Shown here one piece after another: positions 14,285 to 63,994 of a stretch of 64,000 bases of DNA. The stretch comes from Stegostoma tigrinum (Eukaryota), in contig NC_081396.1 in NCBI RefSeq assembly GCF_030684315.1, forward strand, positions 9,539,628 through 9,603,627, read 5' to 3'. Positions within the stretch are counted from its first letter, which is position 1. Each line of letters starts with the position of its first letter. The notes beneath the pieces were generated by a model. It did no database searches and was not told the DNA's origin. It was given only the letters and a program-made list of their open reading frames with translations. Position numbers and translations under genes: made by a program.

Positions 14285-15200
14285 CGTTATTGTGATCCAG
14301 TCTCCAAAAAGGTGCGGTATTTCAGAATTTATCTCTTATTACCTAGTGTCAATGGAGGTGTCAGATCTGCTGGTCATTGTGACAGCTGTCATATTAAACC
14401 GCATTGCTGGGATTTACTTCCCGTCTAGTTTTCTCTCCCTCACACCAGTGTGCATTGTGCGTTCTGCGTTAAATTATGGATTTATTGATAGCTCTGCCTG
14501 GATAACAGTCGCTTTCACTGTTGATCGATTTGTAGCCATTTCTTGCCAGACGCTCAAAATAACATGTTGCACCAAGAGGACGGAAATGCGTTCTGTAGGA
14601 ATCGTGATCACATTAGGCTGTGTAAAAAATATATTTGTGTATTTTACATATGAACCAAGGTACGTGGTAGAAAATATACCCTGGTTCTGTAACCTAAAAG
14701 ATATATTTTTCACGTCAGTTGCATGGGCTGCTTATGACTGGGTTTGTTCAATTGTTCAATTTGTTCAATCCACTTGTCTCCCATTCATTCTGATTTTACT
14801 GCTCAATGCTCTGACCGTCAGGTACATTCTAGTGGCTAATAGAGCCCGCAGGAGACTCCGGACCCAGAACAATGGAAAGTATCAGAGTGATGCAGAGATG
14901 GAGAAGCGGAGAAAGTCAATCATTTTGCTATCTGCTATTTCAGGCAGTTTCATTCTGTTCAATGCACTCTACTTCATAACAATCCTGTACGTCCGCATCG
15001 GGAATCTTACTTATGCCTCGGATTCCGACTTTAACAATCTCTCTTTTGTTCTCAATGAAAATGCATTTATGCATCAGTTTTTGAGTTCCTGCGTCAACAC
15101 ATTTATATATGCTGGAACTCTGAATAAGTTCAGAGCCGAGTTAAAGAACGGGGTAGAGTATCCATGGAGACTTTTTCCTCAACTTAAATTCAAGTTTTGA
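14285..15200 (+). CDS. GPR139-like GPCR gene A, coding exon 2 (open, but possibly decaying)
   Basis: 304 visible codons: TM2 VSDLL, TM3 FTVDRFVAI, ECL2 PWFC, TM5 CLPFILILLLNALTV, TM6 KSIILLSAISGSFIL, TM7 SSCVNTFIY, stop at 15198-15200. Confidence 0.88.
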
Positions 15201-36273: not shown

Positions 36274-37199
36274 CTAACCTGGCAGTAATTGTGATCCTGT
36301 CTCAAAGAAGATGTGGTCTCTCTGGATGTGTTACTTATTACCTGGTGTCCATAGCAGTGGCAGATCTACTGGTTATGCTCATGACTGTAATATTAAACCG
36401 GATTGCTGGCATTTATTTCCCATCCAGCTTCCTGTCTATCACACCTGTGTGTAGTATCCGTAATGCATTAAATATCGCAGCCACTGACAGTTCTGCATGG
36501 TTAACAGTGGTTTTCACCTTTGACCGATTTGTCGCCGTTTCTTGGCCAAACCTGAAAGCAAAATATTGTACCAGGAAGGTGGCAGCGTGGCTTATAGGAA
36601 TTGTGTGTGCATTGACCTGCCTAAAAAATATCTTTAGGTGTTTTCAATTTGAGCCAAAGTACATAATTAATGGTACACCCTGGTTTTGTGACATAAAATC
36701 CGTATATTATACTTCACCAGCATGGACTGCATATGACTGGATTCGATCCATTTTAAACCCCTGTCTGCCATTCATTTTGATTTTCCTCCTTAATGCTCTA
36801 ACTGTCAGACACATCCTAGTGGCAAATAGAATGCGGAGGAGATTTCGGAATCAGGGAAAAGAAAAGAACCAGAGGGACCCAGAAGTGGAGAAGCGTAAAA
36901 AGTCCATTATTTTACTCTTTGCTATCTCGGGTAGTTTCATCCTGTTGAATTTATTGTATTTTGTAACAATCCTTTATGTCCGAATTGCCAATGTTACTTA
37001 TTCCTCAGGTTCTGATGCCAATAATTCCACATTCGTTCTCCAACAGAGTGGACTTATGCTTCTGGTGCTGAGCTCTTGCATCAACCCATTTATTTACGCT
37101 GGGACACAACATAAATTCAGGGTCGCGTTAAAGAACATGATTAACTATCCAAAGAACCTATTGTTTAATATAGTAAAATTGGAAAACAGGAACATCTGA
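36274..37199 (+). CDS. GPR139-like GPCR gene B, coding exon 2 (intact; spliced product 331 aa)
   Basis: Polypyrimidine tract plus ttacAG acceptor at 36272-36273. Seven-TM pattern with AVADLL, FTFDRFVAV, PWFC, NPCLPFILIFLLNALTV, KSIILLFAISGSFIL, SSCINPFIY. Confidence 0.93.
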
Positions 37200-48870: not shown

Positions 48871-51800
48871 CACGTGTGAGAAATTGATCAGGAATGATAA
48901 TTGTCCTCATCTAAACACGAGGCAATCAACTCTGTCCATATGTTAGAGAATAATTCCTGCAGGTTCAACTCAGATTTCGTGAAAAACCTAGCCATCAGCA
49001 TTTGAAACTGCCCAAAGCAACCCATACAGTTTTCTCACTCTTTACTTCAGCAACTGGAACCCGACAACAGGCTTTGAATTTGAACTAACGTTTTTGGTAT
49101 AATATTAGTCACTTGTTACATCAGATACAAGATATAACTCACAGCACCTTTCAGTGTCAGCCACCCAGTCTTTTCCTCGGTCACTTGCAATGTCTGCACT
49201 CCCCCGTTTTTCTGACAGCTAAAAGGCAAGAATACACTCTCGACTTCTCCAACGCCCAAGAAATGCATGAAATGCCAAGGTCTGCTTTGGTAGCATTAGA
49301 ACTCACTCCTCCAACAAGACACAAGCCTAAATCCAGTGTCATAGACTGCACAGCCATGCTAACTGATGACAGTTGTATTGTCAAAACGTTTGACTGATAA
49401 TGGCACTGAGTTAGAACGGAAACGATGAGCAGGACACCGTTCCTCATGCCTTTAAGATTTTATTTTTTCACGTAAGGATTTGATGTACCATAGGTGACAG
49501 TGGCATCTCCATCACTTATTATCCATTCCCAGGTGCAGCTGAAAAGATGCTGAGCAGCATTTTTGGGTAAATTGGTGAATGGTGATTTCTCCTTGTCCAT
49601 CAGTCCTTCTCAAGTTCGATCACAGAGCTTCCCTGCTGCTTGTTTTACAAAGTGACTCTTGACTTTATGATCAGAGTCTTGCAGGTACTCAGCAGCTCGG
49701 ATGGGATCTGTTGATATAGGATCAGAGCTGATGTTTGAGCTCAATTACCTTCCATCAGGACTGTGGAAAGTGAGAGATCTTAGAGGTTTCAAACCAATTC
49801 TCAGTGAGGGAAAGGGGAGAGGAGGAAAGAAGGAAAAAAGCATGGTCCTTGATAGGTGGAAGACAGGAGACATTCAATAACAAAAGGGAATATCGTGAAT
49901 TACAGAAGGAGATGAGAATTGAAGAAAAAAATCAACACAGGTTGATTGAAATATTCTGGACCAAAGAGCTCTCTGTGCTGTGGGGCGTTTTACTTCCGAG
50001 TTCACTCCCAGAACATGTCTGTTCCACAGTGAAAATTCAATGCTTAACCCCGGTTTCTGTGAATAAACATTTCATTAAAGAATACATCACAGTCCACGTC
50101 AGCAGAAGGAAAACATGAAAATACTTGCTACTTGGATGATGTTCAGAGGTGATTTAATAGTTTATTCCCTACGCCTTCTGAATCTGTTCATTATGGTCTG
50201 GTCCAACACACTTCTTCCCATTCTTATGTCTCCCATTCTATCCTTCAATAATCATTTACTATTATTATGTTTGAAGAGCAATTTACAATTTGTTGTATCA
50301 CAGCCTGCCATTTGTTTTTGCTTTTGTTTCGTCTCAGTTTTCTTCACTTCACCATTAGCCTCTCTCCAACATTTGAGATACTCTTGCCGATTTAATTGCT
50401 TTTTCAGTGTAAATTATTTCGAAAAATATCAACACTTTTAATTTTTTCTGTTAGTATCAGGATATTGAAGGTAAAGCTGAGATAATTCAACAATACTCCT
50501 TTGGCTGTTTATTGGACCAAATTCATTTAGCGTTTCTCCAATGCTGTACCAGGAGATTGGACTTTTCGTCGGTTTCTCAAAGTTAAAATGAAATCTGTAT
50601 TACAGACCTGTTTTGTCGATATTTTCATAAAGAAAGTGTTCAGGAGTTGCCAAAGGGAACTGAAGGGAAAGGATGTGGCATGCTTTCTTCAACAAAACGT
50701 AATAAATAGTTGTTTATTATCCATTGTATATGTACACTTCATTTCTGTAAACGTAGATAAACACAATGTGCGGGTAGAAGAACACTGCAGGCCAGGCAGC
50801 ACCGAAAGAGCTGGAAAGCTGATGTTTCGGGTCGATACCCTACTTCGGGAAAAGAAAACATCTTTACGTCTGCAAATGTGCCCTGCCTCAATTTGCATTT
50901 ATTAGAGTATTACCCCTCGATCTCTGATATTTGGTCTTGACTAATCCGAAATATTCATGGCTTTTGCCTCATATTTTATTCTCGAAAATCAAGGTAATCT
51001 AAAACTCCTTCCAATGGCAGATTAGTTTAGTTTGCTCATTCCCTCTCAACCACTGCGCTTCCCGCCTCAGAACCACCTCCACTTAAAAAGAAAATCCATC
51101 TTTTCAAGTCATGACGTGTCCTTGTATCTATGTCCGTATCCCATTCCTGTTATACATCTATCCGATGTGTCAATGCTGCACTCAATCAATCATTACCATG
51201 TTACTTCACACCACCCACTGCAGCCCTTTATTCAGTTGTAAATCCCAAGGCCTCTGGGATTCTACCTTGAAATATTATTGTCTGTCCATTTACTTGTCCT
51301 GTTCGTGACCCACCATCTTTATAAATGCAATTAGGTGAAGAAGCATGTTCCCACCCGCCAGAGCATGCATTTAAGCTTCAACCAAGGCTCAGGTTACAGT
51401 AACCCACCCTGTTGTAACAGATTCTGAAATCAACTGCTATTCCCAGATGTAAACGTGGAAAAACTAAGTTTAAAATTCCAGTGCACAAGCGATGATGAGC
51501 AGCACTGATGGAGATGCTCTGTTTTGGGGGAGACAGTAAAACAAATAACCATCTGAACTCGAGGCACTCAGCATAATTATCCATTACACGGTTTCGAAGA
51601 ACAGAGGATGTCTTTGTCCTGGCCAATGTTTAACTTTCAAGCAGTGTCACAAGACATGCGTATCTTTTCATGATCACGTGAACAGTTTGGGGCTGCTTGA
51701 TGTGTAAATATGTTTGACCACATTTCCAACATCACAACAATGACGAAACTTTTAAAAAATCACTTTCATCTGGAAGGGACATTTTAGGACGTGGGATGGT

Positions 51801-59800: not shown

Positions 59801-60053
59801 AATTGCCAGTTGGCCACATTTATAAGATCATTATTCTCTGCCTTTTGGCAAAGTTGTATCTCAGCTAAGAAAACATACATCTCAGGATATTGCAGAGTGG
59901 GTGTGAGCTGCAAATCAACTGTGAATGAATTAAATTTGGAGCTGGTGTGGGAAGCTGGAAGTTGCAAACACTCTCCTGTATTTCTGGGATATAAATGGAA
60001 AATGACACGAGTTTCATTTTCACTTTATCTGCCAGTCACATTGTATCTTACAG

Positions 60054-60326
60054 GTGAAGAGGTAGTTTTGCAATCATTCCCATCTCAGACTCCAAGTGAA
60101 TGGAGACCGTATCAATACACTGTCACGCAACCATCTCATTCTCTGCAGTATACTGGTGCATGCAAACTCCGAATCACTGCCCAAAGTTATTGGTAACGGT
60201 GACGGGAAGTGAAGCGGTGAATAATTGCAGATTTAGAGCTGTCAGTAGAAGTGAAGAGAAAAGCAGCTCTCTGATAATATCGACCTTACATCTAACAGAC
60301 ACCGGAAGCAACTTTTGTGCCCTACT
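60054..60326 (+). pseudogene. T-cell receptor V-alpha/delta-like gene segment, frameshifted
   Basis: Acceptor cttacAG 60052-53. Repairing a 1-nt deletion near 60101 gives EEVVLQSFPSQTPSE(G)ETVSIHCHATISFSAVYWCMQTPNHCPKLLV...RFRAVSRSEEKSSSLIISTLHLTDTGSNFCAL: IgV Cys/Trp/Cys framework with a CAL end typical of TCR alpha/delta V. Confidence 0.88.
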
Positions 60327-60365
60327 CACAGTGTGGAAAGGAGCGTCAGAGTCCGTACAAAAACC
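60327..60365 (+). promoter_or_regulatory. V(D)J recombination signal sequence, 23-bp spacer
   Basis: CACAGTG (60327-60333) + 23 nt + ACAAAAACC (60357-60365), exact consensus, abutting the V 3' end. Confidence 0.97.
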
Positions 60366-63924: not shown

Positions 63925-63994
63925 ATGCACGCAATACTGACAGGTCCACTGTTTAATGTTTATTATCCTGTCCTTGCAGCAGTCGGAGTTCCTG
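63925..63994 (+). CDS. GPR139-like GPCR gene C, coding exon 1 (exon 2 beyond window)
   Basis: MHAILTGPLFNVYYPVLAAVGVP+G, 70 nt, donor GTAAAT. CATAAATA 56 nt upstream. Confidence 0.88.

Follow-up and report, generated by a model that had tools for sequence, protein, structure and literature searches.

The window analysed here is a stretch of 64,000 nucleotides of Stegostoma tigrinum, namely positions 9539628-9603627 of contig NC_081396.1 (C55). It holds two GPCR genes, the first exon of a third and, upstream of the latter, a T-cell receptor (TCR) V exon, alpha/delta in type, that is directly followed by a recombination signal (RSS). The features are as follows (window positions).

14352..15200, plus strand: GPCR gene A, long exon with open frame (7tm_1)
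36375..37199, plus strand: GPCR gene B, long exon with open frame (7tm_1); nearest Atlas clusters carry the name probable GPR139
51142..51169, minus strand: cryptic site resembling a 12-RSS (5/7 matches in the heptamer and 5/9 in the nonamer, 12 nt apart), the unrearranged paralog of the partner site of sister copy L007
52002..64000, plus strand: window part of a duplicated V and GPCR unit, collinear with its sister units (~77-89% identity)
60002..60055, plus strand: putative 18-codon leader with in-frame ATG, contiguous with the V exon; weakly hydrophobic, likely intronless, presumably serving as signal peptide
60056..60326, plus strand: pseudogenic V exon of TCR alpha/delta (one nucleotide deleted at 60103/60104, WF>WC, YFC>NFC)
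60327..60333, plus strand: RSS heptamer, consensus, unchanged in 7/7 copies that still have a heptamer
60334..60356, plus strand: 23-nt RSS spacer, one difference from the intact copy L002
60357..60365, plus strand: RSS nonamer, consensus, perfect in 3/8 copies
63925..63994, plus strand: first exon of GPCR gene C, the second exon lying past the window (C55:9606049-9606833)

The plus-strand exon at 60056..60326 matches the V-set domain of Pfam (E 6e-7), is closest in similarity to TCR alpha V and has TCR alpha chains as its top single-domain matches in the PDB. C23, W41 and C104 are all present, the last in an NFC context. One base that is found in seven of seven sister copies is absent at 60103/60104; the reading frame from the ATG at 60002 is lost at 60103 and meets a stop at 60194, and the frameshift and this stop interrupt the open reading frame up to C104 that a functional TRAV would have. 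The initial annotation had read the exon as a dead TCR V segment with a 1-nt frameshift near 60101 and the substitutions WY>WC and YFC>NFC. The V-set and TCR alpha likeness, the frameshift and the stop bear out this reading, and NFC indeed replaces YFC; in the case of the other substitution the C is there in the window copy but the postulated ancestral Y is not upheld, since an F follows the W in all seven sisters (i.e. WF>WC) and WY occurs in a catshark relative. The window V belongs to the shark antigen-receptor complex, as a pseudogene of the TRAV/DV type. An attempt to date its death by pN/pS was dropped, as the value of 0.37 depends on a pS twice as high as the rate in the flanks.

The catshark protein is the nearest named relative (HMMER, 67% identity) and has both WY and YFC intact. 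Its sequence runs through its RSS and is, as far as can be deduced from the protein, compatible with the consensus signal of the window V. With an intact sister as query, the HMMER protein search returned this protein and one more relative, both of them germline read-throughs, and no rearranged V-J-C product; a word-index protein search with the same query yielded no match.

Eight V copies, 83-96% identical, lie on the plus strand within C55:9.366-9.638 Mb (~270 kb), and two of them have open frames. Their flanks are collinear over many kb, the downstream GPCR included, and GPCR long-exon matches (14 in C55:9.34-9.70 Mb, of which 9 are open over at least 280 aa) alternate with the Vs. GPCR gene C is a pseudogene, with several stops and a frameshift in its second exon. 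V and GPR139-like GPCRs were duplicated together. The array resembles the bovine homology units, in which a collateral V expansion is described whereby Vs multiply and die as passengers of duplicated blocks (PMC4289303); here a GPCR is the partner gene in the duplicated unit. The sister L002 (C55:9365759-9366123) is an intact V with a perfect RSS, 4/271 coding departures and a pN/pS of 0.15, and is a candidate functional TRAV at 8.45 Mb from J-alpha. Just left of the array, at C55:9146869-9183916, there are three minus-strand Vs of another family, each adjoining minus-strand GPCRs; their heptamer reads CACCATG where seen.

The ATG of 60002 is kept in 8/8 copies. A phase-1 split-leader exon at the usual distance was seen in none of the seven copies scanned, versus six of six proximal control Vs, and a start at 60002, with a leader free of introns, is plausible. 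An octamer-like motif at 59908-59915, identical in 4/8 copies, precedes the ATG by about 90 nt and has one mismatch to the Ig/TCR promoter octamer. A candidate decayed split leader lies further upstream, near 59829-59873, and the sister V L008 carries ~300 nt of repeat-like DNA inserted in its putative leader (C55:9444239-9444528). Elsewhere on the contig, L081, L087 and L097 (C55:5.141, 1.849 and 5.806 Mb) have an in-frame ATG ~20 codons ahead of the mature V, with a hydrophobic core; a split-leader exon was sought in L081 and L087 and not found, so that their leader is apparently intronless. PMC12227049, by contrast, describes a split leader as the canonical form in every antigen-receptor gene. 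Literature listings gave no title fitting intronless shark TCR leaders or this GPCR expansion, which is weak evidence of absence in both cases.

Position of the J, D and C segments

A genome-wide search with a J motif returned 98 matches, 69 of them on the contig of the window, and these 69 are all on the minus strand at 853-961 kb, i.e. 8.64-8.75 Mb to the left of the window V and on the opposite strand. Right of 961 kb the pattern has no match on this contig; it recovers 66 of the 79 known Js, so that the probability of overlooking a group of five is ~1e-4. No J with a 12-RSS was found in C55:9.14-9.80 Mb either. In the fetched block there are 79 Js with a 12-RSS, 70 alpha and 9 delta, and the TCR alpha/delta core in C55:820001-1420000 comprises C-alpha, the 70 J-alpha, C-delta, the 9 J-delta and at least one D-delta. 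C-alpha (844 kb) and C-delta (947 kb) each gave one strong match in the genome search. The Pfam TCR-alpha constant model found nothing above its cut-off, and both constant regions were found as open reading frames; the C-alpha exon contains SKGLLSTS, the nurse shark counterpart of which is SKGLLSTN (PMC5931798). All of these segments, D-delta included, are on the minus strand at 0.84-0.96 Mb, with the window V 8.64-8.76 Mb to their right on the same contig and on the opposite strand.

The initial annotation had made its proposal of gene loss (see below) dependent on Js to the right and in the same orientation as the V, which the placement of 69/69 matches contradicts. On its condition of 12-RSS partners in cis the result is mixed: 79 Js with a 12-RSS are present on the contig, but not in the right-hand, same-orientation placement. 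An exact 12-RSS pattern gave five matches genome-wide versus three in a control and none on the contig of the window, the latter because shark J-alpha heptamers are mostly non-consensus. One 12-RSS-like site with two mismatches (C55:9746168) has no J adjoining and was set aside as chance.

V genes begin 10 kb from D-delta, in opposite orientation and with no assembly gap between, and V exons occur on the contig from 0.97 Mb onward, up to at least 9.64 Mb. Of 47 Vs with an RSS in three regions sampled (1.5 Mb in total), 43 are on the plus strand, i.e. inverted with respect to J and C, a count obtained with a motif filter that missed some Vs, two sisters among them. Some 1.7 Mb out of the contig's 16.4 Mb was covered by reading, and the geometry between the Js and the window is that of the assembly. 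Multi-exon C1 clusters at 0.24-0.56, 2.8-4.9 and 8.07 Mb were taken as IgH (150 of 318 candidates scored).

This make-up is that of the elasmobranch antigen-receptor complex (AgRC), in which IgH clusters and TCR alpha/delta lie on one chromosome (Flajnik et al. 2025, PMC12227049) and for which table S1 of the same paper gives TCR-type V exons, some of them pseudo, strewn across many Mb and in both orientations in four species. GPCRs between Vs, RSS status and inversional joining lie outside the parts of that paper compared here, and the window V stands 8.7 Mb from its Js. In channel catfish TRAD, all 140 TRADV are opposite to C (PMC8656973). The orientation of V opposite to D-J-C is thus shared with catfish, whereas in catfish the Vs are placed downstream of C-alpha and within 1.3 Mb, and here they are placed upstream of D-delta, with a reach of at least 8.7 Mb.

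A sister V broken next to its heptamer

In the sister copy L007 the V ends 5 nt before the heptamer position (L007:1853-1854 = C55:9439358/9439359) and gives way to DNA whose counterpart in three intact paralogs is found 9-11 kb upstream of a later V, with no inserted bases at the junction (neither N additions nor P nucleotides). Set against intact stretches, the loss comes to 44-61 kb and includes two GPCR genes, which in one of the two comparisons are exactly genes A and B. Contigs of two samples bridge the junction with 0 differences and at the depth of its neighbours, and it is therefore inherited, not somatic. An origin by tandem duplication is disfavoured, L007 and L008 being 85% identical and no closer than other pairs.

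On the partner side, the paralogs have, 2 nt ahead of the point of junction (a trimming of 1-2 nt), a minus-strand heptamer-like sequence starting with CACA, followed by a 12-nt spacer and a nonamer with 5/9 matches. Within the window the paralogous site is the one at 51142..51169, which faces the upstream sister Vs in deletional orientation. Scored with a matrix built from the 79 J signals, the site ranks 65th of 5476 minus-strand CAC sites and 65th of 2150 CACA sites in two of three paralogs and 298th in the third, i.e. it is a cryptic 12-RSS-like sequence in the top 1-5% of CAC sites, and it is devoid of an RWR motif.

It is possible, if on balance doubtful, that RAG made this junction in the germline by cutting L007 at its 23-RSS and joining it to the cryptic 12-RSS, with deletion of the ~44-61 kb and the two GPCR genes. 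The position of the break 5 nt short of the heptamer, the small trimming, the lack of inserted bases, the inheritance of the junction in two samples and the rank of the partner site among CAC sites in two of three paralogs are all consistent with such an event, and the probability that one of the 24-63 junctions in the array lands within 10 nt of a heptamer is 0.005-0.03. A precedent exists in nurse shark Ig light chains, where the NS4 type has an inherited, trimmed junction without evident N additions, like L007, and where trimmed germline joints and little TdT activity have been reported (Lee et al. 2000, PMC2193156); the NS4 junction joins V to a real J in Ig clusters, whereas L007 joins a TCR V to non-coding DNA at a weak cryptic signal with microhomology.

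It is this microhomology that provides the competing explanation. Right at the junction, five of six bases agree, and these themselves supply the CAC; repair by alternative end joining or template switching would suffice without RAG. The cryptic site scores 4.7, beneath all 79 J signals (lowest real J, 10.0), and its nonamer is without the purine-A/T-purine at positions 4-6 (PMC12711392). Furthermore, L007 is the lone break at a heptamer border: among 33 further V-like rows (1.5 Mb) there is no second one, two others breaking mid-exon, and the chance that one of three truncations falls in the last 10 of 300 nt is ~0.1. The test of the L007 junction was devised once that junction had been seen. 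No title in the literature listings fitted a germline RAG deletion via a cryptic RSS at TCR loci, which is weak evidence of absence.

If the junction was RAG-made, it is a fossil of a germline off-target deletion at a TCR locus in which non-immune genes were removed, and it would bear on how far RAG still edits vertebrate germlines. Germline RAG activity would then extend from Ig clusters to the TCR locus and its non-immune passengers, and dead Vs whose RSS is still live would act as heritable hot spots of deletion, with an effect on how many copies of the neighbouring GPCRs there are. Within the window, a join from the next upstream V to the cryptic site at 51142..51169 would remove genes A and B.

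Probable drift of the recombination signal

The RSS at 60327-60365 consists of CACAGTG, 23 nt and ACAAAAACC, without a single mismatch, as had been claimed, and is the sole consensus 23-RSS of the window, the two other matches carrying three mismatches each. RAG recognises the RSS and not the reading frame of the coding segment, and in principle the signal of the dead window V could still serve it. Across the eight copies the signal is perfect in three, has one mismatch in three, has a displaced nonamer in one and is lost in one, and on the chromosome 4 of the 47 sampled RSS-bearing Vs have a perfect RSS. The perfect signal looks like a family trait, because the catshark read-through is compatible with it.

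The idea that the signal has outlived the dead window copy beyond chance does not hold. The probability that its 16 consensus bases stay unhit is 0.25 (terminal branch 0.087), or 0.26 by a simpler count. Most likely the window RSS was inherited from a working ancestor, drifts neutrally and has so far been spared by mutation. This agrees with mouse TCRAD, where canonical RSSs are reportedly retained by all nonfunctional TRAV (PMC2194109); a dead V with canonical heptamer and nonamer, as the window V has, is found there too, with the difference that mouse Vs join by deletion within 1.6 Mb and the geometry of the window V is inversional.

Selection on the RSSs of dead Vs, on account of the RAG cutting itself (through decoy joins that reorient the locus, or through use as conversion donors), is unlikely in our view. 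It draws on the whole 39-bp signal, which has 5 non-CpG changes among the copies versus 11.6 expected from the flanks (P 0.026), on the heptamer that is intact in 7/7 copies (0/49 departures; P 0.07 after correction for CpG and tree) and on the geometry, by which inversion by a distal V would put all more proximal Vs in deletional orientation. Heptamer and nonamer together give 3 changes versus 6.0 expected, which is not significant (P 0.15); these counts omit a 3-nt insertion in L003 and the loss of the RSS in L007, and the signal is lost or displaced in 2/8 copies. Moreover, the pooled pN/pS across the coding regions of the copies is 0.68, i.e. there is residual constraint, which suggests that the copies worked for some time before death and which would explain the conservation of the whole signal. 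The 39-bp signal is somewhat more conserved than the flanks, which fits past function of the copies and leaves room for selection on cutting itself.

Outcome of joining

RSSs that are oriented alike join by inversion. In the case of the window V and the Js, all signals have their coding side on the left and the signal on the right, and a join is therefore an inversion, as a consequence of which a direct join deletes nothing. We are confident of the resulting picture as a whole: a TCR alpha/delta V made a pseudogene by a frameshift, belonging to a set of eight V copies that were duplicated together with GPCRs, with an RSS that was likely inherited and has likely escaped mutation so far, and with joins that would invert instead of delete. 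A join of the window V, were it to take place, would yield an alpha transcript that is out of frame and would invert 8.7 Mb, carrying IgH clusters and genes A and B along. At 8.7 Mb from its Js the window V is probably used rarely, if at all. Should Vs as distal as this one be used, a single join in a shark T cell would turn round 8.7 Mb with its IgH clusters; by comparison, the mouse Ig-kappa locus measures 3.1 Mb.

The initial annotation had the V joining Js to its right, which would delete GPCR gene C and, from more upstream Vs, genes A and B, so that T-cell clones would differ in their GPCR content. We consider this very unlikely. V-J joining does remove passenger genes in human IGL, where PRAME, ZNF280A/B and GGTLC2 lie between V segments (PMC9282919) as the GPCRs do here, and the perfect RSS of the window V and the alternation of Vs with GPCRs, of which 9/14 have a long open exon, speak for the proposal as well. 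In human IGL, however, joining is by deletion and the passengers are lost, whereas one join here loses nothing; the arrangement of a passenger-deleting array, with V and J in the same orientation and the passenger between RSS and J, is not the one found. With J and C on the strand opposite to the window V, no J match right of 961 kb (a missed cluster of five having P ~1e-4) and no second C-alpha or C-delta in the genome search, direct joins from upstream Vs are inversional too, and A and B are not lost in one step. Gene C, itself broken, is not part of the segment that would be inverted. What could remove A and B is a second join after the first inversion, made by a sister V closer to the Js, as the geometry would allow, or a join to a cryptic 12-RSS. 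One-step deletion of GPCRs is refuted if the assembly has the orientation right; a scaffold joined the wrong way round between the Js and the window is possible and was counted against the best explanation.

An error at the level of single bases, which would make the window V functional and the frameshift an assembly artefact, merits next to no credence for these samples, although other individuals may carry an intact allele, and no point in its favour was found: over 59977-60146 and 59977-60277, contigs from two samples agree with the window without any difference or gap (the samples belong to one study and one may be the assembly source) and further contigs span the window RSS exactly, which shows that frameshift and RSS are not assembly errors, the contigs that carry the extra base have at least 13 other differences where listed and were assigned to sister copies, and NFC and WC are lesions besides the frameshift.

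That the RSS is real and the V dead is established, and PRAME is a known precedent for passenger genes being lost through V-J joining. Since dead Vs commonly have good RSSs and the geometry defeats the deletion scenario, the finding as first stated is an ordinary one. Right of the window V there are three minus-strand cryptic 12-RSS-like sites (C55:9668596, 9687494 and 9628889), none of which is followed by a J; they are in deletional orientation to the window V and score 13.8-17.1, within the range of the real Js (10.0-27.3).
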